A stretch of DNA of 64,000 bases from Escherichia coli (GCF_044324785.1 NZ_CP172127.1); one strand, 5' to 3'; shown: positions 4,039-47,634, counted from the first letter of the stretch. A program made the numbers and translations. Notes: generated from the sequence alone by a model not told the origin.

Positions 4039-4305
4039 ATGGCATTACTCGATTTCTTTCTCTCGCGGAAGAAAAACACGGCCAACATTGCAAAAGAACG
4101 GCTGCAGATTATTGTTGCTGAACGCCGTCGCAGCGATGCAGAACCGCACTATCTGCCGCAGTTGCGTAAAGATATTCTTGAGGTCATTTGTAAATACGTA
4201 CAAATTGATCCTGAGATGGTAACCGTACAGCTTGAGCAAAAAGATGGCGATATTTCTATTCTTGAGCTGAACGTGACCTTACCGGAAGCAGAAGAGCTGA
4301 AATAA
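4039..4305 (+). CDS. minE: Cell division topological specificity factor MinE
   Basis: 88 aa, [28 protein letters not shown]...; 3 nt after minD stop. Confidence 0.98.
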
Positions 4306-4332
4306 GCCCGCTGTAAAAGCGCATTTATCTTC

Positions 4333-4362
4333 AAGGCAGAGTCATCTCTGCCTTGAGTTTTT
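4333..4362 (+). terminator. Rho-independent terminator of the minCDE operon
   Basis: aaggcagag / ctctgcctt 9-bp stem with tcat loop, followed by gagttttt. Confidence 0.8.
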
Positions 4363-4574
4363 CATCCCCCTCATCCACGTTTGATAAGAGCGGCGAGTAT
4401 TCTTGCTGATGCTACTCATTGCTTCCCCCCCTTTACACCTTAATGCCGTTCCCCCCACACAGAACAAAATGTTTATACCTGGCTGAGTAAATAACCTTAT
4501 TGTTAGTATGGGTATGCTGGGAGATGATAACCCCGCAATTTCATTATTCATTGTTCTCCCATAGGATGAGGTTT

Positions 4575-4600
4575 CCCGCCGTAACTGGCGGGCTTTTTTT
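4575..4600 (+). terminator. Orphan intrinsic-terminator-like hairpin
   Basis: cccgcc-gtaact-ggcggg followed by ctttttttg; no annotated gene ends here. Confidence 0.5.
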
Positions 4601-4670
4601 GCCGCAGAATTTTCCCTTTTAACACCCTGTAAACGAAAACTGCGCCGAAGCGCAGTTTAATCGTTGATAG

Positions 4671-5114
4671 TCAGAACGACCAGTTCGCACCAGCCACCGC
4701 GTTCCACGGGGATTCCACACCGGCACCATGGCTATACCCCACCCCGAGATGCCCGCTTAACGAACTGCTGAATGAGGCTTTAATACCTGCCTGATATATT
4801 CCACGTCTGCCCGACAAATCATTGACAAAATTACCGTCATTATTCACTTTCACCCGGTTATCATCGACAAATTCTTTGCGCACAGCCATTTTCAGCCACG
4901 GCTCAACTTCCATGCCGTTCCCCAGACGCATGTTGTAACTCAGCGTTGCACCCAGTTCACGATATATACTGCGGGTATCGACTGATTTCGATTCCATGCC
5001 ATTGGATAAATGATAGTAGCGTCTAAGTGACCTTAGCTCTGCTGCAACATCATCCCGCAGGCACCAGACCAGGGGATTGATCCTGAAGAGGCAGCGCAAG
5101 TGTATTGTGTTCAC
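4671..5114 (-). pseudogene. ycgI: Autotransporter beta-barrel C-terminal remnant (ycgI-like)
   Basis: C-terminal ~90 aa (...GIKASFSSSLSGHLGVGYSHGAGVESPWNAVAGANWSF) resemble the end of an autotransporter translocator, terminal F; N-terminal part of the ORF is not protein-like and has no signal peptide or passenger. Confidence 0.65.
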
Positions 5115-5416
5115 CGCTCATCAAAGACATCATGATGAAATAATGATATCCCGCATAAGAAAGAGGCATTTTTTAAACGCAGTGCGCTGAAATGTAGTTG
5201 GATAAAAAAATCACTCTTTTCTGATAATACTGTTGTACGCTTATTTTTCGACAATGAGGCCGTCGACAAAATAAAATGACTAATGTAATCGTTGCTGATG
5301 AATATCTTCTGCTCACATAAAAATCACACAATAATATTGATAAATCAGATTATCTTACCTTTACAACATTGTATTAACAGTCAATGACACTTCTTGAATA
5401 AAAATATTGTCAATCA

Positions 5417-5590
5417 ATGAGTTATTTCTCATTTGAGATTATTCTTATTCCCGTAAAAAACATAATTCCTATCATCACAGTCACGCTCATTTTGAATTAT
5501 CTGAATAATAGCGAGCGTTCTTTAGTTAAGCAGATCTTAATTGAAGACGAAATTATTGTGTGTGCAACTTACTTAATACCGGACATCTAA
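5417..5590 (+). CDS. Candidate small hydrophobic protein, 57 aa (possibly ymgI)
   Basis: ATG 5417 to TAA 5588-5590 gives [57 protein letters not shown]; below the ORF-track size cutoff; the gene name is a guess from length and position. Confidence 0.4.
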
Positions 5591-5591
5591 G

Positions 5592-5936
5592 TTGAAGAAA
5601 AAAATACTTGCCTTCGGGCTTATCTCAGCATTGTTCTGCTCCACGCCAGCGATGGCGGATATGAATCGCACCACGAAAGGTGCATTGCTAGGCGCAGGCG
5701 TTGGTTTACTTACTGGCAATGGTGTTAATGGCGTACTGAAAGGTGCAGCTGTTGGCGCTGGTGTTGGTGCAGTAACAGAAAAAGGCCGCGACGGTAAAAA
5801 TGCGCGTAAAGGTGCAAAAGTGGGTGCCGCCGTTGGTGCTGTCACTGGCGTTCTGACCGGCAATGGCCTCGAAGGGGCGATTAAAGGTGCCGTGATTGGC
5901 GGTACGGGTGGTGCAATTCTGGGTAAAATGAAATAA
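5592..5936 (+). CDS. ymgG: Glycine-zipper protein YmgG, 114 aa, apparent TTG start
   Basis: [22 protein letters not shown] signal then G/A-rich repeats ([11 protein letters not shown]...). Confidence 0.8.
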
Positions 5937-5945
5937 GGAATGATG

Positions 5946-6275
5946 ATGAAAAAATTTGCTTTACTGGCGGGTCTGTTTGTTTTCGCACCAATGACCTGGG
6001 CGCAGGACTACAATATTAAAAACGGTTTGCCGTCAGAAACCTATATTACTTGCGCAGAAGCCAACGAAATGGCAAAAACTGACAGCGCACAGGTTGCAGA
6101 AATTGTTGCGGTAATGGGTAATGCCAGCGTTGCCAGCCGTGATTTAAAAATTGAGCAATCTCCGGAACTGAGCGCCAAAGTGGTAGAAAAACTGAATCAG
6201 GTTTGCGCTAAAGACCCGCAAATGCTGTTGATCACGGCAATTGATGACACCATGCGTGCTATCGGCAAAAAATAA
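5946..6275 (+). CDS. ymgD: Periplasmic protein YmgD, ~109 aa
   Basis: Track ORF 111 aa starting MMMKKF; third ATG matches the expected 109-aa length; signal peptide present. Confidence 0.8.
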   Translation: MKKFALLAGLFVFAPMTWAQDYNIKNGLPSETYITCAEANEMAKTDSAQVAEIVAVMGNASVASRDLKIEQSPELSAKVVEKLNQVCAKDPQMLLITAIDDTMRAIGKK

Positions 6276-6288
6276 TATTTAATATGTT

Positions 6289-6319
6289 ACCGCGTCGATG
6301 AATTCGACGCGGTATTTTA
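6289..6319. terminator. Hairpin between convergent ymgD and ycgH, candidate bidirectional terminator
   Basis: accgcgtcg / cgacgcggt 9-bp stem flanked by A/T-rich runs on both sides. Confidence 0.6.
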
Positions 6320-6330
6320 GCTAACGGGGA

Positions 6331-8979
6331 TCAGAACTTATATTTCAGGCCCACCATCACTGCGGTGTCATTGTAGCCATTATCACCCAGCTGCACGCCC
6401 ACATTACCCCAGACGCTGGCCGCCGGATTCAGATTGCCATTTACGCCAAGTTTAATTTCCCCCAGATTACGCGCCCCGTCTTGTTCAACTTTCACACCGT
6501 TCATTGAGACAGCAAAATCTTTACTGTTATGGATCCAGTTCATTTCAACAAAAGGTTCAAAGTCGTCACCGTGCGGACCGCTGTTTTTCTCCTGAGTACG
6601 AATAAAGGTGCGGAAGCCGAGTCGGGTCTGGATGTTGTTATTTGCGTCACTCTCAATACGTGAGCCATTGGCTTCCGTGTGCGCATTATGATCGACGCCC
6701 ATCCAGATAGCCTGTGCCTGTGGCTGGAAGATCCACGTATATTTCGCCGCTTCCAGACCAAAGGATTTATTCAGGGCAAAACCGTAACCCGCTTCCAGCG
6801 AGACGGTTGCACCTTTCGCGCTATAGGATTCATAGGCTAATTCATCTCCTTTCACCGAGTTTTTAAACCAGCTATATTGCGCCCAGGCGTCAATGTATGC
6901 GCCTTTTTTACTGATGTCATCGGCAAACCAGGTGGCATACAGCCCTGCGCTATAGCCTCTGACACTCCCTTTCGAACGATAATCCGACAAGCTGGAATGA
7001 GTTGAGTTGTAGTCGCGGGCATAACCAGCCATCACTCCCAAACGCCAACTGTCACTGTCGGTAAAACCACCGGTTAACAGATCCGCCCCTAACTGCGAGA
7101 CGTAGCGATGCGAGGTCGTTCTCAACTGTCCGTTGCTGTCACGCCAGGCATTATGCCCGCCAATTTGACGTAGCCAAAGTCGGCTTGAACGCTCCTGTTC
7201 AGTTACAGGATCGATGTAGCGCGTTTCACCTGCACGATCGTTCAGACGCATAACAAAAAGAGTGTTAGCGGCTGCCAGGTTGGCGACGTAACTTCCAGCT
7301 TCGGGGCGCAGAACGGGGGTAGGCGCAACAGTAGGCGCTGAACTTCCTCCGGAGTTTGTTTCACCGCCGCTCGTTGCCTGGAAGTTAGTCAGATACCAGT
7401 TTTTATTGGTCGCTTCGGTATTACCTCGGGTTAATGAATATTCGTAGGCACCGGCGAAAATCCTCGAATCCTTAATAAATTCCCCATTTGATTCCCCCTC
7501 AACGCTGATAATCTCTATCCCATTTAACGTGTAAGCCCCGCTGCCCCCAGCATTGGTAACTTTTACTCGGGTTGTTCCGGAGGTATTTCCATTAATAACA
7601 ACTTTATCAGTAGCTGAATTATCATCACCCAATTCAGTTCTGAGATGCAATACGCCATTATTACCAACGTAATTTTCAGTTATTGTTAACCTTGTTGGTT
7701 CGAAATCCTTTCCATCTGCCCGGGAAATATAGACCGTACTATTGTCAACCGTGAGCTTGCTCACCGTTGAGTCAGTTTTAATATCCCAGGTACTATTATC
7801 TGAAAGCGACAGATAGGTATGAGTGCTATCATCTGTTGAAAGATTGGCTGAACCCGTTATTTTTGAATTAGATGCATCGATGGCCAAATGACCTTTAATA
7901 TTATTAATAAAAACATCTGCAGCCGATGATACCTCACTATCCGTAATGGTCACGTTACTCGTCTCATTTTTATTGTATAGGATTTCATTTGCTGACCGTA
8001 GTGAGCTACCAGATAAAATATCTACCGTTGCTTCCTGACCATTTATGGAAGACTCCAGCACAACTCCAGCCCCCTGATGCGCGACTGCAAATGTATTTTT
8101 CAGCGTCACCGTGCCGCCATTATAAATTTTAGCAATCGCGGCGTCAGGACCCGTTGTATAAATTTCTCCCTGGTTAAATGAAACTGTCCCCTGGCGAGCA
8201 GCGATGGCATGAGCATTGTCCCCATGCGTGGTAATATCAACATCGGTTAATGTAACGCTGGCATTGGTATAATCAAGCTTGCTACCAGCCTTGACGACAG
8301 TGCCATTAGCGTAAGCGGCATAACTTTCTGTTCCGTGGGTTGTTATCTCCCCTTTTGCCATATCCAGTTTTGCTTTGGCGTTATTTTCATTACTTCCTGT
8401 ATCGGCAGTACTTTCTTCATCAAGAGAAGATACACACGCACGCGCGCTTCCGGGAGATGCACAAGCAAGAACGCCGACTGCGTGATTACCCGCAGTAACA
8501 ATAAAAGTATTACCTTCGTCAGATAAATGGGGGTTAACCGAACCGTCAGTGTTGACTCTTATTATGGTATCAGTATTCAGGTTTCCATTCGTTTGACTTA
8601 GCAAACCAATTGAGTAATCCCCCGTTGTGACAATCGTATTATTACCCTGCAAAATAACTGCACCGCCATATTCACTTACGACTGCGCTAGCTGTATATAC
8701 TGTGCTTAGAGGACTATTGCCAGAAGGATATAAACCACCCGTTGTTACAATGACGCCTTTGTTAATGGTTAAATTGCTACCCTCTCCTGCAACAGATACC
8801 CCGTAACTTCCATTACCCGTTGTTATAACTAGCGCATTATCAATATCTTTTACTTCTCCATCTTTTATTGCCACAGCATGTTTATATTCATCGTGCTGAA
8901 TAAACTGTTCAGCATATGCATTACCCACCGCCAAAGCAATAAGTCCTAAACTAAACCCGGGGAGTTTTTTCAGTTTCAT
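6331..8979 (-). CDS. ycgH: Autotransporter (type Va) adhesin-like protein, intact 882 aa (ycgH)
   Basis: Signal peptide MKLKKLPGFSLGLIALAVGNAYA, long G/T/S/N-rich passenger, C-terminal barrel ending ...VMVGLKYKF; position between ymgD and ymgF. Confidence 0.85.
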   Translation of the reverse strand: MKLKKLPGFSLGLIALAVGNAYAEQFIQHDEYKHAVAIKDGEVKDIDNALVITTGNGSYGVSVAGEGSNLTINKGVIVTTGGLYPSGNSPLSTVYTASAVVSEYGGAVILQGNNTIVTTGDYSIGLLSQTNGNLNTDTIIRVNTDGSVNPHLSDEGNTFIVTAGNHAVGVLACASPGSARACVSSLDEESTADTGSNENNAKAKLDMAKGEITTHGTESYAAYANGTVVKAGSKLDYTNASVTLTDVDITTHGDNAHAIAARQGTVSFNQGEIYTTGPDAAIAKIYNGGTVTLKNTFAVAHQGAGVVLESSINGQEATVDILSGSSLRSANEILYNKNETSNVTITDSEVSSAADVFINNIKGHLAIDASNSKITGSANLSTDDSTHTYLSLSDNSTWDIKTDSTVSKLTVDNSTVYISRADGKDFEPTRLTITENYVGNNGVLHLRTELGDDNSATDKVVINGNTSGTTRVKVTNAGGSGAYTLNGIEIISVEGESNGEFIKDSRIFAGAYEYSLTRGNTEATNKNWYLTNFQATSGGETNSGGSSAPTVAPTPVLRPEAGSYVANLAAANTLFVMRLNDRAGETRYIDPVTEQERSSRLWLRQIGGHNAWRDSNGQLRTTSHRYVSQLGADLLTGGFTDSDSWRLGVMAGYARDYNSTHSSLSDYRSKGSVRGYSAGLYATWFADDISKKGAYIDAWAQYSWFKNSVKGDELAYESYSAKGATVSLEAGYGFALNKSFGLEAAKYTWIFQPQAQAIWMGVDHNAHTEANGSRIESDANNNIQTRLGFRTFIRTQEKNSGPHGDDFEPFVEMNWIHNSKDFAVSMNGVKVEQDGARNLGEIKLGVNGNLNPAASVWGNVGVQLGDNGYNDTAVMVGLKYKF

Positions 8980-9378
8980 AGATTAACCATCCATTCATTG
9001 GATTAACAAACATTCCTGGTCAAATAACCTATGAGTTCAGATTACCAAAACGGAGGGTAAAGACAAAAACAAAAGCACAAAAAATTTAAATAGATAAACA
9101 GCGACAATATATAAATGATAAATAAGTCGGCATTATCATTTTTCACCTTATTTTCATGACATTGATCACTTTGAGGTGACGATTTTGTTTAACAAATAAC
9201 TCTTCGACATCAAAACTATTAATAGTTGCCATAGAAATTATTTCAATGATATATAAAAACAACTGTGATAACACCAGGGTTGACAACTATTTGCGCAATA
9301 ATTCCTTTCCTTCAATGATCCAGGCATTCACTGCCAGCAACCCATTCAGCCGCATACTGACAGTGAGAAACTGAAAGA

Positions 9379-9597
9379 TTAGTGCTGATCCCTGTGGCTG
9401 ACGAGTCTTTCCCTTAATCGATTAACCAGATTGATCGCCAGCCAAACAAGGGCATTAAGCAAATTTATCGTCACAAGCACTTCTCCCAGCCCGGTACTGG
9501 GTTTTGCAATAAGGATGACCAGGAGAGTGATCAGCATAAATGCAATGGAAAAGATGATATAGAGAGTGAAATAATCCAGATTATTACTATTGTTCAT
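9379..9597 (-). CDS. ymgF: Small inner-membrane division-associated protein YmgF, ~72 aa
   Basis: Track ORF 84 aa; internal Met (MNNSNNLDYFTLYIIFSIAFML...) gives the expected 72 aa; two hydrophobic helices. Confidence 0.65.
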   Translation of the reverse strand: MNNSNNLDYFTLYIIFSIAFMLITLLVILIAKPSTGLGEVLVTINLLNALVWLAINLVNRLRERLVSHRDQH

Positions 9598-9728
9598 GCT
9601 ACTAATGGCAATCCTGTCAAAACTTTCAAACAATTATAGCAAACAAAATAATGAACAATAGTAACAAGAGGCAACGAGCTAATTAGCTGTCTATAATTAC
9701 ACCGCACCATGGCCTTGCTGATCAATTT

Positions 9729-11252
9729 TCACTCAACCACAACCTTCACCTTCGGTTTAGAAAGGATAATTTTGACCAGGTCGATGTATGTAACAGGTTT
9801 ATAGAAATAATAACCCTGCTGAAATGTGATATTATTTTGGTTCAGATAATCAAGTTGTTCTTTCGTTTCGACACCTTCAGCGACGATACTGATCGAAAGT
9901 TTACGCGCCAGATCCAATACACAATCCAGAATTCGGGTTGATTCTGGGTCTGCGTTGACGCGGCCAACGAAACTGTGATCAATTTTGATATAATCAATAT
10001 GCAGGTCATGCAGATAAGAAAGCCCTGAGTAGCCAGTACCGAAATCATCCAGCGCGATGACAAAACCATTTTCATGCAGAATGTTCAACCGCTGAACCAG
10101 ACTTTCATCAACATTTAATGGCTCACGCTCGGTAACTTCCAGAACGAGGTTTAAATCGCGGCGGGTAAAACTGTCACGGTAATTTAAGCACTCGTCGACA
10201 AACGTCGGCGAAATAATATGCGAGGCGCTAAAATTAATTCCAATATGAAAACCCTCCGGCAGTTTACTCGAGATAGCGTTCATCTGTCTGGCAACCTGAT
10301 TCATCAGGCTTTGCGTAAGCGGAACGATTAATCCGGATTTTTCAGCAAGTGGAATAAATGCCGCGGGTGATATATATCCACCGTGAGGTTGTTTCCAGCG
10401 GGCTAACACCTCAACTCCCCGCAATGTCCCTTCCCGACCATTTACCACAGGTTGGTAAAAAGGGACGATCTCCCCATTATTTATTGCCCGTCGCAGGATC
10501 TCTTCAGGCGTTGCGCTTTTATTGAAATATCTATCAAGCAGGAAGGCAGCGGCGCAGGCGATTAACAGAATAAATATCAAAATCCCAAAGCCTTTATCGA
10601 TAAGTCTGTAGAAGCTAAAGAGTGGCGGCGGGTTAAAGATAATAGTGAAATGATATTTTGTGGAGTGAACCTTCTCGGTATAGGGATAATGTCCATTAAG
10701 AGTCATCACATCACCCGTAGGTCCAATAATGTCATCCGCCACGCGTAATACATACCTTACCCCTTTCAAGGGTACATTAAGCGCTCCGCGAATATGCTGA
10801 TCACTTATCGTAACCAAAATGCGCGTATCTGCAAATTGGCTCTGATAGAGCAGGATAGGTAATCTATTAACGGTGTCGATTGCCGGAGCCAACAGTAAAT
10901 TACTGTCCGGGAAAACAGGAATACGAGACAGCAGGACCCGATTCCCCGGTAAGGATGTACACCAGACCGCTCCCTGTTTGAGAATGATGATTGTGCGCAG
11001 GTGAGGTTTCAGAGCTGCTTCAGTGCCAAGCTGATATTGCTCCTCGAGGTCGCATTCCTTCCCGGCAATGTTAACCGCCGTTTGAGTCGCCTGTGACGCT
11101 TCTTCAAGTATATGATTGATATTGTTGGCGGCATATCTTGCTCCCGCCAGGTACTCTGCTTTTGCGGAATACCAGAGCTGGATGTTCAAAATAGCGACAC
11201 CGGTTATAAACAAGCATATCGCAATGAGGATGGGTATGAGTGTATTGCGCAT
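9729..11252 (-). CDS. pdeG: CSS-domain / EAL-domain c-di-GMP phosphodiesterase PdeG (YcgG), 507 aa
   Basis: N-terminal TM helix, periplasmic region with cysteines, second TM, C-terminal EAL-type domain (EVLARW, DDFGTGYS motifs). Confidence 0.85.
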   Translation of the reverse strand: MRNTLIPILIAICLFITGVAILNIQLWYSAKAEYLAGARYAANNINHILEEASQATQTAVNIAGKECDLEEQYQLGTEAALKPHLRTIIILKQGAVWCTSLPGNRVLLSRIPVFPDSNLLLAPAIDTVNRLPILLYQSQFADTRILVTISDQHIRGALNVPLKGVRYVLRVADDIIGPTGDVMTLNGHYPYTEKVHSTKYHFTIIFNPPPLFSFYRLIDKGFGILIFILLIACAAAFLLDRYFNKSATPEEILRRAINNGEIVPFYQPVVNGREGTLRGVEVLARWKQPHGGYISPAAFIPLAEKSGLIVPLTQSLMNQVARQMNAISSKLPEGFHIGINFSASHIISPTFVDECLNYRDSFTRRDLNLVLEVTEREPLNVDESLVQRLNILHENGFVIALDDFGTGYSGLSYLHDLHIDYIKIDHSFVGRVNADPESTRILDCVLDLARKLSISIVAEGVETKEQLDYLNQNNITFQQGYYFYKPVTYIDLVKIILSKPKVKVVVE

Positions 11253-11587
11253 TCACTTGTCCCGGCCAAAGGGTTTAATACATAAAAATGACATTCATTC
11301 GCTCGCGCTGGCGTCTACAGAGAGCATGGTAGAGAGCATCACAAATATCCACGCCGAAGATAAAATTTTCTCCATCTTCATCTAACCTATTAATTATTGA
11401 GCATAATGTAGGCAGAATTAAACAAATTAGGCGGGATATCAGGCGTCAAGAATGGAAAACGAGCGCTCTCCATTCTTGTTGGCTCCCTGATATTGCGGAT
11501 ATATTAAGAAAGCATAACGCCTGAAATGCTCACTTTGCACCAGCATGGTGATACATCTGATCTTTATTCTAAAGCCTTCCACAAGTT

Positions 11588-11836
11588 TTAAGAGAGCACG
11601 GATTCCCTGTCATTAATAATGATATCCGCTAGTGTAGTCTTATGCATTTCAATGTACTGCAAGATTTGCAGATAGAGATCAGAAAGAATCACACTGGTTT
11701 CATCTTTTAAACGCAAGCGTAAAGCCTGATCAATAATATGACTATCAACATATCCATGCGTCATGAACACCTCCCTCTCAAGATTTTTAAACAAAGCACA
11801 TTGAAAAATAAATCTCTCTGGGATTGAATTATTCAT
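11588..11836 (-). CDS. ymgC: YmgC, last gene of the ycgZ-ymgA-ariR-ymgC operon
   Basis: Track ORF 91 aa; internal Met MNNSIPERF... gives ~82 aa; synteny. Confidence 0.7.
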   Translation of the reverse strand: MNNSIPERFIFQCALFKNLEREVFMTHGYVDSHIIDQALRLRLKDETSVILSDLYLQILQYIEMHKTTLADIIINDRESVLS

Positions 11837-11948
11837 GTCAGCCTCGTAGGAATAGTGACCCAATAAAATTATGCTGTGTATAGTCTAAAGCGACAGACAA
11901 AAATAAGATGAATGAGTTTTCTAAAAACTTATACTTAACAATTAAAAG

Positions 11949-12215
11949 TTACATATCATCAGCTGTGTATCGCAACACGATTTCCAGTGTTTTTCTAATC
12001 ACATCAGCTTTAAGAATATCATTTGTTGTTTCCAGGGAGTGTATCAGACTTAAGATAATATTTTTATTATTAACATTATCGCCTGAAAGCATTAAATTGG
12101 TCACAGCCTGCCCTAACACAGCTGACTCTTCTTCTAACAAATTACCTGAACTACGAAAGTAACTTGATAACGCTTTATCAGTTATTGCATTATGAATAGT
12201 AGTATCTTCAAGCAT
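11949..12215 (-). CDS. ariR: Biofilm/acid-resistance connector AriR (YmgB), 88 aa
   Basis: 88 aa; third gene of the ycgZ operon. Confidence 0.8.
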
Positions 12216-12243
12216 GGTAACCTCTCATCTTACTTATGAAATT

Positions 12244-12516
12244 TTAATGTATTCTGTTTATTTTCTTACCATTGAACATACTTTTATTGTCAGCTATCGC
12301 TGTTCTTCTGTTTGGCCCTCCTGTATCACTGTTGCTAAAATCACGAATTATGCTGTCAATTAAATCTCGTCGGAAAGCATTTTCCTCAGCCGATTTCATT
12401 ACGAGTAATTGCTTAATAAGAGTCTGCAACGAAAAATTTATCTTCATGCGCAGTATATGGAGCACCGCCTGGCCAGTAATTTCATATTTTATACTTTCAT
12501 TATCAGATGTCTTCAT
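12244..12516 (-). CDS. ymgA: YmgA, 90 aa
   Basis: 90 aa; second gene of the ycgZ operon. Confidence 0.8.
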   Translation of the reverse strand: MKTSDNESIKYEITGQAVLHILRMKINFSLQTLIKQLLVMKSAEENAFRRDLIDSIIRDFSNSDTGGPNRRTAIADNKSMFNGKKINRIH

Positions 12517-12558
12517 AACGACTTCATAGCTAACCTGTTAAATACTCAGGCTGTTGCA

Positions 12559-12795
12559 TTATTCAAAAAGCAACCCAATTAGTGCATTATAATGTTTCTG
12601 TTCCTCTTCCCCTGTCGCTTGTTCCAGTCGGCAAAGAAGTTTGGCACAAAGCGACTTTCGACTCAGATTACGTCCATCTTTCAAAATCTCAGTCACAATT
12701 TCCCCGAGAGTTTCCTGCTGAGTAGGCAAGTTAGCTTTTGCAAAGTAACGAGTGATTGCTCCCGCAGAATCTGAAGTCACTGAATTTTGATGCAT
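12559..12795 (-). CDS. ycgZ: YcgZ, 78 aa
   Basis: 78 aa; divergent from bluF. Confidence 0.8.
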   Translation of the reverse strand: MHQNSVTSDSAGAITRYFAKANLPTQQETLGEIVTEILKDGRNLSRKSLCAKLLCRLEQATGEEEQKHYNALIGLLFE

Positions 12796-12850
12796 GCTAC
12801 GCCTCTGTTAAAAATGTTAATCAATGTTAAGTGAGGTAACAATAGCAAAC

Positions 12851-12870
12851 TTGTACGAAATATGTGTACA
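12851..12870. promoter_or_regulatory. TGTAC-containing inverted half-sites in the ycgZ-bluF intergenic region, candidate BluR operator
   Basis: ttgtacgaaatatgtgtaca; resembles the TGTACA half-sites of the MlrA/BluR family. Confidence 0.4.
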
Positions 12871-13108
12871 GAATGATAAATTAATTTTTTGCAATTAGTG
12901 CTAATGCATATAAAACAATGCCTTATGATATAAAATATTGCATCATTTAAATGACAACCTATACAATGTTTTTCGCCAAATCGTCTTCAACTTTTTCCAC
13001 TTTTTATCAATGTAAAGAAACGGTTATGTTTTGGTATTAAAAGAAAGACACAAGAAGATATGTCTGTTACCGTCTTACTCTCGCCTCGCCCATTACCCTG
13101 GATTGTTA

Positions 13109-14320
13109 ATGCTTACCACCCTTATTTATCGTAGCCATATACGTGACGACGAACCTGTCAAAAAAATCGAAGAAATGGTTTCGATAGCAAATCGCAGGAA
13201 CATGCAGTCTGATGTAACAGGGATCTTACTGTTTAATGGTTCTCATTTTTTCCAGCTTCTGGAAGGTCCGGAAGAACAGGTTCAACTGATATTTCGGGCT
13301 ATATGTCAGGATCCACGGCACTATAATATTGTTGAACTGTTGTGCGATTACGCGCCTGCTCGCCGTTTTGGCAAAGCAGGAATGGAATTATTTGATTTAC
13401 GCCTGCACGAGCGAGATGACGTTTTACAGGCCGTATTCGACAAGGGTACATCAAAATTTCAGCTAACTTATGATGACAGAGCGCTACAATTTTTTCGTAC
13501 TTTTGTCCTTGCAACCGAACAATCAACCTATTTCGAGATCCCTGCTGAAGACTCCTGGCTTTTTATCGCTGACGGATCTGATAAAGAACTTGATTCCTGC
13601 ACCCTTTCACCAAATATAAACGACCACTTTGCCTTTCATCCTATTGTCGATCCCTTATCGCGGCGGATAATCGCTTTTGAAGCCATTGTGCAAAAAAATG
13701 AAGACAGCCCGTCAGCTATAGCGGTTGGGCAGCGTAAAGAAGGGGAAATCTACACAGCGGATCTCAAAAGTAAGGCGCTTGCATTCGCGATGGCACACAC
13801 ACTTGACCTCGGTGACAAAATGATTTCAATCAATCTATTACCTATGACCCTGGTTAACGAGCCTGATGCAGTCTCTTTTTTACTTGATGAAATAAAGGCC
13901 AATGGCCTGGTGCCGGAACAAATCATCGTTGAATTTACCGAAAGTGAAGTCATATCTCGGTTTGATGAGTTTGCCGAAGCGGTTAAATCGTTAAAGGCTG
14001 CCGGTATCAGTGTAGCAATTGATCATTTTGGCGCAGGTTTTGCCGGTTTGTTACTCCTGTCACGCTTCCAGCCTGACAGAATTAAAATCAGTCAGGAATT
14101 GATTACCAACGTTCATAAAAGCGGGCCACGGCAGGCAATTATTCAGGCGATCATAAAATGCTGTACATCACTTGAAATTCAAGTCTCTGCTATGGGTGTG
14201 ACAACACCAGAAGAGTGGATGTGGCTTGAATCTGCAGGAATTGAGATGTTTCAGGGAGATCTGTTTGCGAAAGCTAAATTGAATGGTATCCCTTCAGTTG
14301 CGTGGCCGGAGAAAAAATAA
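13109..14320 (+). CDS. bluF: Blue-light sensing BLUF/EAL protein BluF (YcgF), 403 aa
   Basis: Track ORF extended to 13031; ATG at 13109 gives MLTTLIYRSHIRDDEPV..., BLUF domain then degenerate EAL domain. Confidence 0.9.
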   Translation: MLTTLIYRSHIRDDEPVKKIEEMVSIANRRNMQSDVTGILLFNGSHFFQLLEGPEEQVQLIFRAICQDPRHYNIVELLCDYAPARRFGKAGMELFDLRLHERDDVLQAVFDKGTSKFQLTYDDRALQFFRTFVLATEQSTYFEIPAEDSWLFIADGSDKELDSCTLSPNINDHFAFHPIVDPLSRRIIAFEAIVQKNEDSPSAIAVGQRKEGEIYTADLKSKALAFAMAHTLDLGDKMISINLLPMTLVNEPDAVSFLLDEIKANGLVPEQIIVEFTESEVISRFDEFAEAVKSLKAAGISVAIDHFGAGFAGLLLLSRFQPDRIKISQELITNVHKSGPRQAIIQAIIKCCTSLEIQVSAMGVTTPEEWMWLESAGIEMFQGDLFAKAKLNGIPSVAWPEKK

Positions 14321-14440
14321 TTTTCAGCACATTATTTCGCATGATTTCTGGAAATCATCGTGAAAATGAATACGTTATGTTTTAATTTAATCCACATTAA
14401 AAATAATGTTTCATCCAATTTAGCTGAAATCTTATTTATA

Positions 14441-14491
14441 CTTTGTACAATTTTAGCGTATATTGTACAAAGTATTATTGGGTCGTGTACA
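14441..14491. promoter_or_regulatory. Three TGTACA palindromes upstream of bluR, candidate MerR-family (BluR) operator
   Basis: ctTTGTACAAttttagcgtatatTGTACAAAgtattattgggtcgTGTACAgg; the first two copies form a perfect 10-bp inverted repeat. Confidence 0.5.
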
Positions 14492-14524
14492 GGCGACGGA
14501 GATTTATGACCGCAAGGAGGAATT

Positions 14525-15256
14525 GTGGCTTATTACAGCATTGGTGATGTTGCTGAACGTTGCGGGATTAATCCTGTCACTCTCCGGGCCTGGCAACGCC
14601 GCTACGGTTTGTTAAAACCACAGCGCAGTGAAGGCGGACACCGACTCTTTGATGAAGAAGACATACAACGCATCGAAGAGATCAAGCGTTGGATAAGTAA
14701 TGGCGTCCCTGTAGGCAAAGTTAAAGCATTACTGGAAACCACCAGCCAGGATACGGAAGATGACTGGAGCCGCCTGCAAGAAGAGATGATGTCAATTCTT
14801 CGTATGGCTAATCCTGCCAAACTACGCGCGAGAATTATTTCACTGGGTCGAGAGTACCCGGTAGATCAATTGATTAATCATGTTTACCTTCCTGTTCGTC
14901 AGCGTCTCGTGCTTGATCACAACACCTCCCGCATTATGAGCAGTATGTTTGACGGCGCATTAATTGAATACGCAGCAGCCTCACTTTTCGAAATGCGCCG
15001 TAAGCCCGGTAAAGAAGCCATTCTGATGGCGTGGAATGTTGAAGAGAGAGCACGATTGTGGCTGGAAGCATGGCGTTTATCATTGTCAGGATGGCACATT
15101 TCTGTTCTTGCTGATCCCATTGAATCGCCGCGCCCGGAACTGTTCCCAACGCAAACATTGATTGTCTGGACAGGCATGGCACCAACGAGAAGGCAAAACG
15201 AACTTTTACAACACTGGGGTGAGCAAGGTTATAAAGTCATCTTTCATGCCCCCTAA
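14525..15256 (+). CDS. bluR: MerR-family repressor BluR (YcgE), 243 aa
   Basis: N-terminal MerR HTH ([27 protein letters not shown]). Confidence 0.9.
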
Positions 15257-15476
15257 TTTTACCTTTATCCCGCCCCTTAGACAGAATCTTATAATCTGAA
15301 CCCACAACAGCGTTTGTACCGGAGCTGGTCCGTTGCAAAATGCTCACCGGGAGAATTCAGGTAATCCCCCTTTCACACTTTGTACATATCACAGCCAAAG
15401 GACAGACCAGATTGAAGTGGTAAAACCGATCGTGCACACTACGCAGTCTCACAACTAACAAGAGGTTATTATCCTG

Positions 15477-15881
15477 ATGGATCAGGTTGTTGTTTTTCAA
15501 AAGATGTTTGAGCAAGTGAGAAAAGAGCAAAACTTCTCCTGGTTTTATTCAGAATTAAAACATCACCGTATTGCACATTACATTTATTACCTGGCTACGG
15601 ATAACATCAGAATTATTACTCACGATGACACGGTTTTGTTATTAAGAGGAACCAGGAACCTGTTAAAAGTTAGTACGACCAAGAACCCTGCTAAAATAAA
15701 AGAGGCCGCATTGCTTCATATTTGCGGAAAATCAACATTTCGGGAATACTGTTCAACACTGGCAGGCGCGGGCGTTTTCCGGTGGGTTACTGATGTTAAT
15801 CATAACAAACGCAGTTACTACGCCATTGATAATACGCTTTTATATATTGAAGATGTAGAAAACAATAAACCATTAATCTAG
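15477..15881 (+). CDS. ycgX: Uncharacterised protein YcgX, 134 aa
   Basis: 134 aa; position between bluR and iraM. Confidence 0.75.
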   Translation: MDQVVVFQKMFEQVRKEQNFSWFYSELKHHRIAHYIYYLATDNIRIITHDDTVLLLRGTRNLLKVSTTKNPAKIKEAALLHICGKSTFREYCSTLAGAGVFRWVTDVNHNKRSYYAIDNTLLYIEDVENNKPLI

Positions 15882-16092
15882 CTAAAGTTGGAAGCTTAAG
15901 AAATGCTTCATAATTCAGTAAGACATTAGCATAATGGAAATAAAAGTGCAGAGACTATCCCTATGGATGATAAATACTATCTTTTTATTGCCACCCATAA
16001 ATAATCACCAGGCCAATACTATCAAATTGATATTTGAAATGTGATCACTTGACTTTCTATACGTTATTTTATAACGGTTAACAAATTTATAA

Positions 16093-16140
16093 AACCAACG
16101 GGCGTGCCATACGCCCGTTTCAATACTTAACGCACATGTG
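16093..16140. repeat. Second copy of the icd 3'-flank terminator hairpin (direct repeat with 16959-17004)
   Basis: aacgggcgtgccatacgcccgtttcaatacttaacgcacatgt versus aacgggcgtgttatacgcccgtttcaatatttaacacatgt at the icd stop. Confidence 0.8.
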
Positions 16141-16582
16141 TTTTGGTTTAGTCATCATCCGATTATATGTATTTTAGTCAGGAACGGGTTTAACCATTCC
16201 TATATAACTCAAAAATTGAAACCTTATTCTCAGGTCATGCTTATATTCATCATTATCATTATATTAAAAGGCCAATCATAATGTTTTGCAAATTGGCACA
16301 ACATAGCATAAAGGCTATGTTTTAATTACAGAATGTTCAGTCATTTGAATGTATAATATTTTAGCTAAACAAATCTAAAACGAAGTGAATAATTTAATGT
16401 TTTCACTAAATCTCATTTTGTTTAATCTCTATTGAGATTCCTTGCTTTAAATTTTTTTTATATAGGTAATGACATTAATTTTTAATTAATTTATTTTTTG
16501 GGGAGTAATATACACATATGCAAAATCAAGAAATGAACATCCAAATGAACTATATTAAACACCGTGGGATAAGACATAACAA

Positions 16583-16906
16583 ATGAAGTGGATAGTAATT
16601 GATACGGTAATTCAACCTACATGCGGCATATCTTTTTCAGCCATATGGGGTGATATGAAAATGATCATCTGGTATCAATCTACTATATTTCTCCCTCCTG
16701 GAAGTATATTTACACCGGTTAAGTCTGGTATTATCCTTAAGGATAAAGAATACCCTATTACTATTTATAACATCACACCATTCAACAAGGATTTATGGAT
16801 TTTACTCAAAAGCAGTCAAGAGTGTCCTCCAGGAGAAAGCGAAATAACAAATAAATGTTTACATAATAGTTGTATTATAAAAATATGCCCATATGGACTC
16901 AAGTAA
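16583..16906 (+). CDS. iraM: Anti-adaptor protein IraM (RpoS stabiliser), 107 aa
   Basis: 107 aa, [23 protein letters not shown]...; AT-rich; adjacent to icd. Confidence 0.85.
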
Positions 16907-16958
16907 TGGGCTTCATATAAATATGCTCGACATGCTATTAATAATATCCACATAAATA

Positions 16959-17004
16959 AAACAACGGGCGTGTTATACGCCCGTTTCAATATTTAACACA
17001 TGTA
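16959..17004 (-). terminator. icd rho-independent terminator (first copy of the repeat)
   Basis: Directly downstream of the icd stop on the minus strand: aacgggcgt-ataac-acgcccgtt then T-rich tract. Confidence 0.8.
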
Positions 17005-17008
17005 GAGA

Positions 17009-18259
17009 TTACATGTTCTTGATGATCGCATCACCAAACTCGCTGCATTTCAGCAGCTTAGCACCTTCCATCAGACGTTCGAAGTCATAGGTTACGGTCT
17101 TCGCATTGATTGCGCCTTCCATACCTTTAACAATCAGGTCTGCAGCTTCAGTCCAGCCCATATGGCGTAACATCATCTCAGCGGAGAGAATAATAGAGCC
17201 TGGGTTTACTTTGTCCTGACCGGCATATTTCGGCGCAGTACCGTGGGTGGCTTCAAACAGGGCGCATTCGTCACCGATGTTTGCGCCAGGGGCGATACCG
17301 ATACCGCCAACCTGCGCTGCCAGGGCGTCAGAAATGTAGTCACCGTTCAGGTTCATACAGGCGATAACATCATATTCAGCCGGACGCAGCAGGATCTGTT
17401 GCAGGAATGCATCAGCAATCACGTCTTTAATGACGATCTCTTTGCCGGTGTTCGGGTTTTTAACTTTCAGCCACGGGCCGCCGTCGATCAGTTCACCGCC
17501 AAACTCTTCACGCGCCAGCTGGTAGCCCCAGTCTTTAAACGCGCCTTCGGTGAACTTCATGATGTTGCCTTTGTGCACCAGGGTCACAGAGTCACGATCG
17601 TTAGCAATTGCGTATTCGATCGCTGCACGAACCAGACGTTTGGTGCCTTCTTCCGAACACGGCTTAATACCGATACCGCAATGTTCCGGGAAGCGAATTT
17701 TCTTCACGCCCATCTCTTCACGCAGGAATTTAATCACTTTCTCGGCGTCGGCAGAGTCAGCTTTCCATTCGATACCCGCATAAATGTCTTCCGAGTTTTC
17801 ACGGAAGATAACCATATCGGTCAGTTCAGGGTGTTTAACCGGGCTTGGAGTGCCCTGATAGTAACGTACCGGACGCAGGCAGATGTAGAGATCCAGTTCC
17901 TGACGCAGGGCAACGTTCAGAGAGCGAATACCGCCACCTACTGGAGTGGTCAGCGGACCTTTAATGGCAACGCGATATTCACGAATCAGATCAAGGGTTT
18001 CAGCAGGCAGCCAGACATCCTGACCATAAACCTGTGTGGATTTTTCACCGGTGTAAATTTCCATCCAGGAGATTTTACGCTCGCCTTTATAGGCTTTCTC
18101 GACTGCAGCGTCGACCACTTTCAGCATGGCTGGGGTTACATCTACACCGATTCCATCACCTTCAATGTAAGGGATAATCGGATTTTCAGGAACGTTGAGT
18201 TTGCCGTTTTGCAGGGTGATCTTCTTGCCTTGTGCCGGAACAACTACTTTACTTTCCAT
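17009..18259 (-). CDS. icd: Isocitrate dehydrogenase (NADP)
   Basis: 416 aa, [38 protein letters not shown]... Confidence 0.98.
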
Positions 18260-31657: not shown

Positions 31658-32119
31658 ATGAGTCAGGACAGTAGAGTTTTCTTTCGTATATTCCTCGGTA
31701 TCGGTCTGGTACTGATCCTCATTTCTGTTGTTGTCTTTTATAACCAGTTCACCTATAGCAAAGACGCGATTCATACTGAAGGCGTCATTGTTGATACCGT
31801 CTGGCACTCCAGTCATTCTCATCGCACGGGTAAAAATGGTTCGTGGTATCCCGTCGTTGCCTTTCGACCGACGCCTGATTACACGCTAATTTTCAATTCG
31901 AGTATCGGCAGCGATTTTTATGAAGACAGCGAAGGCGATAAAGTTAATGTTTATTATTCTCCAGGACATCCTGAAAAGGCTGAGATAAATAACCCGTGGG
32001 TTAATTTTTTTAAATGGGGGTTTATCGGCGTTATGGGCGTTATTTTTATCTCCGTCGGTTTATTAATCAGTATGCCCTCCTCTAAAAAGACACGCAGGAA
32101 ACGGAAGTCCCGCCCATGA
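31658..32119 (+). CDS. ymfA: Inner membrane protein YmfA, ~153 aa
   Basis: Internal Met [28 protein letters not shown]...; two TM segments. Confidence 0.8.
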
Positions 32120-32901
32120 AAAAAATCATAATATTGCTCAGTTTACTGATACTCCTGCCTCTGACGGCAACCAGTAATCCATTGATTCCAATAATGAAGA
32201 CTCTTTTTACAGATGTTACAGGTACTGTACCGGATGCTGAAGAGATCGCGCATAAAGCCGAGCTTTTTCGCCAACAAACCGGGATTGCGCCGTTTATCGT
32301 GGTTGTACCTGGCGTTAATGAAGCAAACTTCAGGCAAAATGGCAAAGCGATGCTGGCGCATGCGTCATCTTCATTGAGTGATGTAAAAGGCAGCGTCCTG
32401 TTACTTTTTACCACCCGCGAGCCACGGTTAATTATGATAACCAACGGCCAGGTTGAAAGCGGTCTGGACGATAAACATCTCGGCCTTCTGGTAGAAAATC
32501 ACACTCAGGCTTATTTACATGCGGACCTCTGGTATCAGGGAATCAATAATGCATTGGCTGTTTTACAAGCACAGATATTAAAACAACCGACGCCGCCACT
32601 GACATATTATCCGCATCCCGGACAACAGCAGGAGAATGATCCTCCCGGCAGTACCACGACATTAGGTCTTTTTGCCTGGGCAGTTGCATTCATCGTCTTT
32701 ACTGCATTTTTTTACTACACGACGCGCCTTAATTATGCATTAAAGTTTGCAGTGGCGATGACTATTGCCAATATGGGTTATCAGGCTTTATGTTTGTACA
32801 TCGATAATAGCTTTGCGATTACCAGAATATCGCCGCTCTGGGCAGGGCTGATTGGTGTCTGTACGTTTATTGCCGCGTTGTTATTGACGAGTAAACGGTA
32901 A
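32116..32901 (+). CDS. ycfZ: Inner membrane protein YcfZ, 261 aa
   Basis: 261 aa; signal/TM at N-terminus, C-terminal TM helices; ATGA overlap with ymfA. Confidence 0.8.
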
Positions 32902-32929
32902 AAGAGGAAGTAAAGTGTGCGTCTATTAT

Positions 32930-33027
32930 GCCGGATGCGGCGCGAACGCCTTATCTGGCCCACAAAACCCGCAAATTCAATTAATTGCGTCCCCTTGTAG
33001 GCCTGATAAGCGTAGCGCATCAGGCAA
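32930..33027. repeat. REP/BIME element (two inverted palindromic units)
   Basis: gccggatgcggcgcgaacgccttatctggcc ... gtaggcctgataagcgtagcgcatcaggca; classic E. coli REP motifs. Confidence 0.8.
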
Positions 33028-33038
33028 TGCTTCCTGCT

Positions 33039-33860
33039 TTATAAGCCCTTCAGCAACTTTTCAACAAACTCTGGCACCACCTGGCTTGCCGGGCCGTAAT
33101 ATTTCTCGGCAAATTCATTACCGACCTGGCTTGGTTCAAGATTCAGTTCCACGGTGTGTGCGCCATGCAGTTTCGCTTCGTGAACAAACCCAGCCGCCGG
33201 ATAAACATGCCCTGATGTACCAATGGCAATGAAAATATCGGCCATTGACAACGCCATATAAATTTCATCCATGCCGAGTGGCATTTCGCCAAACCAAACG
33301 ACGTGCGGGCGCAAGGGTGCCGGGAACTGGCAACAATGGCATTTATCTTCTGGCGTAACGTCTCCGGTCCAGTCGAGAACCTGACCACTTTGCGAACAGC
33401 GAACTTTCAGCAGTTCCCCATGCATATGAATGACATTAGTATTACCTGCGCGTTCATGCAGGTTGTCGATATTCTGCGTCACCAGCAAAAAGCGATCGCC
33501 GAGGGCGTCTTGCAGTTTAGCCAGCGCAAGATGCGCGGCGTTAGGCTGAATTTCTGGCTGCTGCAGCTGTCGGCGACGGGCGTTATAAAACGCTTGCACC
33601 AGTTCAGGATCGCGATCGAAACCTTCCGGCGTTGCCACATCTTCAACCCGATGTTCTTCCCACAGGCCATCTGCGGCGCGAAAGGTACGAATACCTGATT
33701 CCGCAGAAATACCTGCCCCTGTCAGTACGAGTACTCTTGGTTTTTCCATTGCTTCCGGCACCACTTTATCTCTGAAAAAAACACGCTGACGCAAACGCTC
33801 GCGCAGACGGCGTTTATTTTTACGAAAACGACTTAACCGATGACCCCGACGCGACAGCAT
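33039..33860 (-). CDS. cobB: NAD-dependent protein deacylase CobB (sirtuin)
   Basis: 273 aa; [10 protein letters not shown] Rossmann motif, Zn cysteines. Confidence 0.95.
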
Positions 33861-47584: not shown

Positions 47585-47634
47585 GTAGGCCTGATAAAAT
47601 GCGCATCAGGTACCGGCAAGGTTACCTGATGCGA
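47585..47634. repeat. REP-like palindromic unit
   Basis: gtaggcctgataaaatgcgcatcaggtaccggcaaggttacctgatgcgacg. Confidence 0.6.

Follow-up and report, generated by a model that had tools for sequence, protein, structure and literature searches.

Between minCDE and icd, the Escherichia coli genome analysed here (GCF_044324785.1, NZ_CP172127.1) carries 12.7 kb of AT-rich DNA that is very probably a mosaic of separately acquired accessory modules, lying beside the icd attachment site. The window, that is, the whole stretch of DNA analysed, is 64,000 nt long, and the interval in question occupies positions 4306-17008. It is the ycg/ymg region of E. coli, corresponding in K-12 MG1655 to the region from icdC-iraM to ycgI-minE, with genes b1160-b1173 plus small ymg genes. 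The window runs in the reverse orientation to K-12, with ycgL-pliG-ycgJ-minCDE first, then the interval, and then icd-rluE-nudJ-mnmA and the genes up to fabH. The AT-richness, the variability and the probable phage-linked origin of this region are already known from published work, and it contains no uncharacterised system; its interest is chiefly that of a negative result.

The mosaic would consist of five modules. The first would be formed by two autotransporter loci, one cut down to ycgI and the other intact with a diverged passenger allele. The second would comprise ymgJ, ymgI, ymgG and ymgD, and the third ymgF and pdeG. The fourth would be the five-gene blue-light cassette, bluR-bluF and ycgZ-ymgA-ariR, together with ymgC. 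The last would be a phage-derived right end, made up of ycgX-ymgL followed by ymgK-iraM. Variation among strains arises from deletions, insertion sequence (IS) insertions, replacement of the passenger allele and prophage traffic at icd.

Composition, distribution and origin of the interval

A preliminary description of this DNA had judged by eye that the stretch from minE to icd is more AT-rich than its flanks, and had proposed sliding-window GC and codon adaptation as a check. We calculated a GC content of 41.7% for the interval versus 50.9% for the remainder of the window (46.8% in the left flank and 51.3% in the right flank). When a 12.7-kb frame was slid along the window, the GC minimum fell at starts 4301-4401, which is the interval itself. 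We then compared 16 genes inside the interval with 50 genes outside it using the Mann-Whitney test and the codon adaptation index (CAI) of Sharp and Li. Results showed lower medians inside for gene GC (0.394 vs 0.512, P = 3e-7), for GC at third codon positions (GC3; 0.399 vs 0.533, P = 1e-7) and for CAI (0.213 vs 0.327, P = 4e-5). The visual judgement was therefore borne out, and GC along the window was not uniform. The same description had spoken of one AT-rich patch; this holds in that the interval has the lowest GC of the window, but the patch turned out to be a mosaic of low-GC islets and not a uniform block.

Using a 300-bp frame, six islets below 40% GC were delimited (5033-5730, 7545-8079, 8592-10024, 11273-13304, 14090-14641 and 15329-17164). 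Bases below this value amounted to 6,930 of 12,703 inside the interval (55%), compared with 3,642 of 51,297 outside it (7%). A typical GC content was found for ycgI, ymgG and bluR, as well as for the barrel of the autotransporter, and the GC of adjacent genes within the interval spans 0.31 to 0.52. Promoter-like sites were about five times denser than in core DNA (41 in the interval vs 8 in a control of equal size), as the composition predicts. On the strength of the literature, an interval as AT-rich and as dense in such sites as this one is presumably bound and silenced by H-NS. In that case its genes would be expressed only by way of dedicated regulators, with ycgZ-ymgABC under BluF/BluR, sigma-S and MarA, and iraM under PhoP.

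To describe the distribution of the interval we used 5,426 complete E. coli genomes, counting a query as present when at least 80% of it was covered. The flanks were found almost everywhere, minCDE in 5,419 genomes and icd-rluE-nudJ in 5,411. Inside the interval, in turn, the segment 4306-6330 was present in 4,569 genomes, the passenger allele (7000-8979) in 1,783, a complete ymgF-pdeG in 3,962, ymgC-bluR in 4,887 (353 genomes had no match to it at all), the ycgX-iraM query (15301-17008) in 3,840 and the ymgK-iraM module in 3,879, with 1,490 genomes (∼27%) devoid of any match to the latter. Sub-blocks thus range from 33 to 90% of the genomes compared with more than 99.7% for the flanks, and they occur independently of each other. 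In other genomes the interval carries IS1, IS2 or ISEc12, has undergone IS1-mediated deletion, or contains a truncated version of pdeG or a disrupted autotransporter gene. Strain-to-strain variation had been expected here, with a pan-genome comparison as its test and complete conservation in all E. coli as the outcome that would speak against it. The comparison revealed a variable interval between conserved flanks, the whole of 4306-17008 being present in 3,778 of the 5,426 genomes. Deviant composition and codon usage, on the one hand, and variable presence between conserved flanks, on the other, are both features of horizontally acquired DNA.

The nearest complete genome, that of strain N3, is 99.8% identical over the interval, and every other genome is at most 98% identical. 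With respect to K-12, identity is 98.9% in the left flank, 97.8% in the right flank and 96.55% in the interval without the passenger. When the interval was divided, intergenic DNA, which makes up 24% of it, was 94.2% identical to K-12, and coding DNA 97.6%, compared with 97.8% for the core. The extra divergence from K-12 hence stems from intergenic DNA, the passenger allele and the iraM module. These figures would also suit a simpler reading, according to which the low GC is intrinsic to ancestral DNA that is packed with small regulatory genes and with long promoter regions between genes, with no need for horizontal acquisition. The amount of intergenic DNA, the core-like coding identity, the lack of detected mobility genes and the presence of most blocks in 70-90% of the genomes all fit it. 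We nevertheless consider it improbable, since GC3 and CAI are low in the coding sequences themselves, YcgX and IraM are members of phage protein families, and the blue-light cassette has other neighbours in Citrobacter and is reported to be missing from Salmonella, Yersinia and classical O157:H7.

In Citrobacter freundii, a five-gene bluR/bluF/ycgZ/ymgA/ariR-like cassette, whose BluR is 84% identical to that of the window, has ychF/csc genes on one side and a fimbrial operon, gdhA and dhaKLM on the other, instead of minE and icd. The cassette, which was the one module analysed in this way, therefore occurs there as one unit in other chromosomal surroundings. It is reported to be conserved in Klebsiella, Enterobacter and Citrobacter and absent from Salmonella, Yersinia and classical O157:H7 (Tschowri et al. 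2012, PMC3509220). The same authors proposed a phage-associated horizontal transfer of the region, citing ybcV and ydfO, the prophage paralogues of ycgX (PMC3509220).

One might also imagine that the entire 12.7 kb is a single genomic island resulting from one acquisition, as it forms a contiguous low-GC stretch with core genes as bounds and a phage attachment site next to it. This is very improbable in view of the spread of GC among adjacent genes, the different numbers of genomes carrying each sub-block, the fact that Citrobacter shares the five-gene cassette only, and the lack of both island-wide flanking repeats and an integrase.

Several observations, in turn, weigh against a mosaic of acquired modules. 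Genes for an integrase, a transposase or a tRNA are missing from the interval, whose border is formed by the phage attachment site in icd, and a search for tRNA and tmRNA genes gave no hit. Nor are the other modules delimited by flanking repeats, the terminator repeat described below being the exception. Finally, most modules are present in 70-90% of the genomes and differ from K-12 in their coding DNA to the same degree as the core does, which implies that the acquisitions are old and cannot be dated here.

The preliminary description had further stated that every readable open reading frame (ORF) corresponds to a named E. coli gene and that there is no candidate for a new system. Consistently, all K-12 genes from iraM to ycgI map one-to-one onto the window, full-length and with the same order and orientation. 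The shared set comprises iraM, ymgK, ymgL, ycgX, bluR, bluF, ycgZ, ymgA, ariR, ymgC, pdeG, ymgF, the ycgH locus, ymgD, ymgG, ymgI, ymgJ and ycgI, and every gene named in that description was found, in synteny with K-12. Nothing beyond the named genes emerged when Pfam, NCBIfam and PADLOC were applied, and the single PADLOC hit was a trivial helix-turn-helix match for BluR, leaving no defence-system candidate. The window differs from K-12 in having no e14 at icd, an intact ycgH-locus gene, a diverged passenger and a frameshifted ymgJ.

The ymgK-iraM module and the icd attachment site

The right end of the interval begins with ycgX (15477-15881, plus strand), which encodes a DUF1398 protein (Pfam) of a phage protein family (phrog_413, E = 1.5e-41), and ymgL (15934-16044, plus strand). 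They are followed by the ymgK-iraM module (16140-16955, plus strand; ymgK 16281-16325, iraM 16583-16906), which falls where the GC of the window is lowest (30.5% over 16001-17000). The module is 93.5% identical to K-12 and behaves across genomes as a unit that is either there or missing. A direct repeat of about 50 nt that contains the icd terminator hairpin, AACGGGCGTGyyATACGCCCGTT, brackets it and occurs nowhere else in the window. Copy 1 spans 16089-16139 (hairpin 16097-16119). Copy 2, at 16956-17003, is icd's own terminator, with its hairpin (16963-16985) and its beginning 6 nt past the icd stop. The two copies are 88% identical, and their alignment score of 69 exceeded the maximum of 30 obtained in 200 shuffles. 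In 1,129 genomes, among them that of CFT073, one terminator copy alone separates ymgL from icd or the icd remnant. An attachment-like repeat together with a precise empty site was therefore found for ymgK-iraM, the one module analysed in this respect.

IraM is a host stress regulator that stabilises RpoS and is under PhoPQ control, and H-NS reportedly regulates it (Battesti et al. 2012, as cited in PMC4288151). Full-length homologues, 64-66% identical at the protein level and ∼71% at the DNA level, occur in 46 phage records, mostly Stx2 phages, in which the iraM homologue adjoins stx2AB. IraM also matched phrog_4407 (E = 4e-51), and among the small proteins of the interval PHROG family matches were obtained for IraM and YcgX only. 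Compared with the iraM-like genes of Stx2-converting lambdoid phages, the chromosomal copy lacks phage neighbours and the similarity ends at the gene ends. When the flanks of the module were compared with e14, the N3 prophage, an Stx2 phage and an Escherichia albertii prophage, the iraM gene alone was matched.

Next to the module, icd (17009-18259, minus strand) is intact and encodes 416 amino acids. The end of iraM (16906) and the icd stop codon at 17009 are 102 bp apart, with no prophage between them. According to Hill et al. (1989), as cited in PMC6379469, e14, phage 21-type and other lambdoid prophages integrate at icd. The attachment point for e14-type and lambdoid prophages, at about 17173/17174, 165 nt from the icd 3′ end, is unoccupied in the window: icd is intact and, outside icd, only the terminator part of its 3′ region has a second copy. 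At the same point K-12 carries e14 and strain N3 a 49-kb lambdoid prophage (NZ_CP031609.1 3678453-3727460), with displaced icd ends of 165-168 nt; the native icd 3′ end of the window equals the displaced remnant of N3 at 164 of 168 positions. The empty e14 site noted in the preliminary description is thus confirmed. The e14 and N3 prophages bring a substitute icd 3′ end plus terminator, whereas the site in the window is vacant. That the N3 prophage carries its own terminator copy illustrates the process proposed to have produced the repeat around iraM. As a separate observation, one end of this prophage, which the window lacks, encodes Avs2, and a SIR2-family protein is encoded beside the repressor region.

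From these data, ymgK-iraM is probably the eroded remnant of an element integrated at icd. An element would have integrated at the icd 3′ end, bringing the ymgK-iraM cargo and its own copy of the icd terminator; when it later eroded, the terminator duplication would have stayed behind as a scar. A broader proposal, on which we consider the evidence to be evenly poised, is that the whole right end, ycgX-ymgL as well as ymgK-iraM, is the product of successive rounds in which elements targeting the 3′ end of icd integrated and decayed. IraM would then be domesticated lambdoid-phage cargo, the duplicated terminator a scar, and the arrangement without the module a pre-insertion allele kept by about one fifth of E. 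coli genomes, CFT073 included. The terminator duplication around iraM offers a concrete and testable explanation for the entry of a general stress response regulator into the chromosome at a prophage attachment site.

The arrangement with a single terminator can also be read in the opposite direction, as a secondary deletion in which an old two-terminator module was lost from B2-type genomes by recombination between the copies. A direct repeat of ∼50 nt is a suitable substrate for such a deletion, and the single terminator of the B2-like strain AVS0362 resembles copy 1 in its left flank and copy 2 in its right flank, a hybrid that fits a crossover. The copies have, besides, already diverged to 88% identity. 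We regard this reading as somewhat doubtful. A chromosomal-type iraM outside E. coli was not found among the species representatives of a 100,044-genome collection by a pattern-based scan, which could miss diverged copies, the E. albertii prophage copy being the only one detected; and the duplication itself would still need an earlier insertion at the icd terminator. A 558-bp contig assigned to Oceanospirillum linum (NZ_MTSD02000045.1), which encodes the first 47 residues of IraM with 98% identity, was set aside as almost certainly E. coli contamination.

Other data speak against integration and erosion at icd. No icd 3′ remnant stands beside copy 1 and there are no further icd-like scars elsewhere in the interval; without such a remnant at copy 1, a prophage fossil requires an extra deletion. 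Because neither an integrase nor structural phage genes nor a displaced icd 3′ remnant was found in the ycgX/ymgK-iraM region, its membership in a prophage remnant is something that we infer.

The window was also searched for structured RNAs. At gathering thresholds, Rfam returned nothing in the whole window. When hits up to E = 1 were considered, tpke11 matched at the icd terminator, scoring 22 bits where the cut-off is 43, and a second sub-threshold hit came from a snoRNA model; both were treated as chance matches.

Gene content of the remaining modules

The preliminary description had seen autotransporter genes in different states of decay, and this proved right for one of the two loci. ycgI (4671-5015, minus strand) is a 114-codon C-terminal beta-barrel remnant of a YpjA/EhaD-like autotransporter, and it matches positions 152-254 only of the Pfam Autotransporter model. 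At the same position, strain NRZ14408 carries an uninterrupted gene for a 1,120-amino-acid autotransporter, of which 3,047 bp are deleted in the window and in K-12 alike, with an identical junction (window 5015/5016). Since this intact counterpart is ∼92% identical in DNA to ypjA/ehaD, found at another locus, ycgI is a remnant of a ypjA paralogue. An intact autotransporter adjacent to minE was counted at 95% identity or more in ∼437 genomes, an approximate figure, given that BLAST is confounded by the 92%-identical ypjA paralogue.

The other locus is not decayed. The ycgH-locus gene (6331-8979, minus strand), an allele of the ‘ECIAI39_1904 family’, is an uninterrupted ORF of 882 amino acids encoding an AIDA-I-type autotransporter. 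Its N-terminus, MKLKKLPGFSLGLIALAVGNAYA, was judged by inspection to be a signal peptide. Pfam domains were assigned as AC_1 (residues 404-516), Pertactin and Autotransporter (601-860, covering model positions 1-254 of 255). The uninterrupted ORF, signal peptide, passenger, autochaperone and complete C-terminal beta-barrel constitute a type Va architecture, and the signal peptide, passenger, AC_1 and 12-strand barrel domain are common to AIDA-I-type (type Va) adhesins such as YcgH, YpjA/EhaD and the ‘ECIAI39_1904 family’. Overall, the protein is 61% identical to the conceptual YcgH of K-12, and about 1.2 kb of the passenger, within ∼7000-8912, cannot be aligned to K-12 at the DNA level. The window therefore holds an intact autotransporter allele, whereas K-12, whose ycgH is frameshifted 25 codons before its end, has only a pseudogene. 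The protein differs from its N3 counterpart by two amino acids, and its exact sequence was absent from a collection of 15 billion proteins. NCBIfam equivalogs of the named adhesins MisL, AIDA-I, ShdA and YfaL/EhaC scored far under their cut-offs (for example, 459 against 2,335 and 401 against 1,297).

Around these loci lie several small genes. ymgJ (5130-5316, minus strand) is frameshifted with respect to K-12 by a 1-base indel, and ymgI (5417-5590), ymgG (5592-5936), which encodes a glycine-zipper protein, and ymgD (5940-6275), all on the plus strand, are 97-99.7% identical to K-12. A 39-amino-acid ‘hypothetical protein’ that N3 and a number of further genomes list at 5050-5169 (minus strand) overlaps ymgJ and has no family match. 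An ORF of 69 amino acids at 4342-4551 was considered spurious, as it has no Pfam or NCBIfam match and is unannotated in N3.

Beyond the ycgH locus, ymgF (9379-9597, minus strand) has a small product that associates with the division septum (NCBIfam NF041587, E = 9e-42). It is followed by pdeG (9729-11252, minus strand), which encodes an intact phosphodiesterase of 507 amino acids with CSS-motif and EAL domains and is truncated in AVS0362. Besides these two, bluF, bluR, ycgZ, ymgA, ariR, ymgC, ycgX, ymgL, ymgK and iraM are intact in the window.

The ycgZ-ymgABC operon (11588-12795, minus strand) consists of ycgZ (12559-12795), ymgA (12244-12516), ariR (11949-12215) and ymgC (11588-11836) and is the lowest-GC coding block (0.34-0.42). 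Divergent from it are, on the plus strand, bluF (13109-14320), encoding a BLUF domain fused to a degenerate EAL domain, and bluR (14525-15256), encoding a MerR/MlrA-like repressor; their DNA is 96.2% and 99.2% identical to K-12, respectively. Pfam recognised BLUF and EAL in the former, MerR, MlrA_helical and MlrA_C in the latter, and the YmgB family in AriR and YcgZ. The layout, with a BLUF-EAL protein beside a MerR/MlrA-like repressor and divergent from a YmgB-family operon, is that of K-12. All components of the BluF-BluR/YcgZ-YmgA-AriR pathway (Tschowri et al. 2009, 2012; PMC3509220) are present and intact, and their sequences predict no functional difference. PdeG and BluF had both been listed as cyclic di-GMP enzymes in the preliminary description. 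This applies to PdeG, with its intact EAL phosphodiesterase, but not to BluF, a degenerate EAL protein that acts as a light- and cold-dependent anti-repressor of BluR and not as a cyclic di-GMP enzyme (PMC3509220).

Observations elsewhere in the window

Outside the interval, the pliG-ycgJ stretch (1423-2507), to the left of the min operon, forms a second, smaller low-GC tract (∼0.41), so the min genes have AT-rich DNA on either side. On the far side of icd, ycfZ (32116-32901) is 89.2% identical to K-12, with three gaps, and the 1-kb bin 32001-33000 shows 90.4% identity and a GC of 0.451, a local diverged allele amid a core of ∼97.8% identity. The gene cobB (33039-33860, minus strand) has a 1-base indel near its 3′ end relative to K-12, giving a product of 273 amino acids compared with 279. 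Lastly, in the ndh-ycfP intergenic region (47601-47610), the alignment to K-12 breaks at ∼59 extra bases present in K-12, probably a strain-variable intergenic repeat element.

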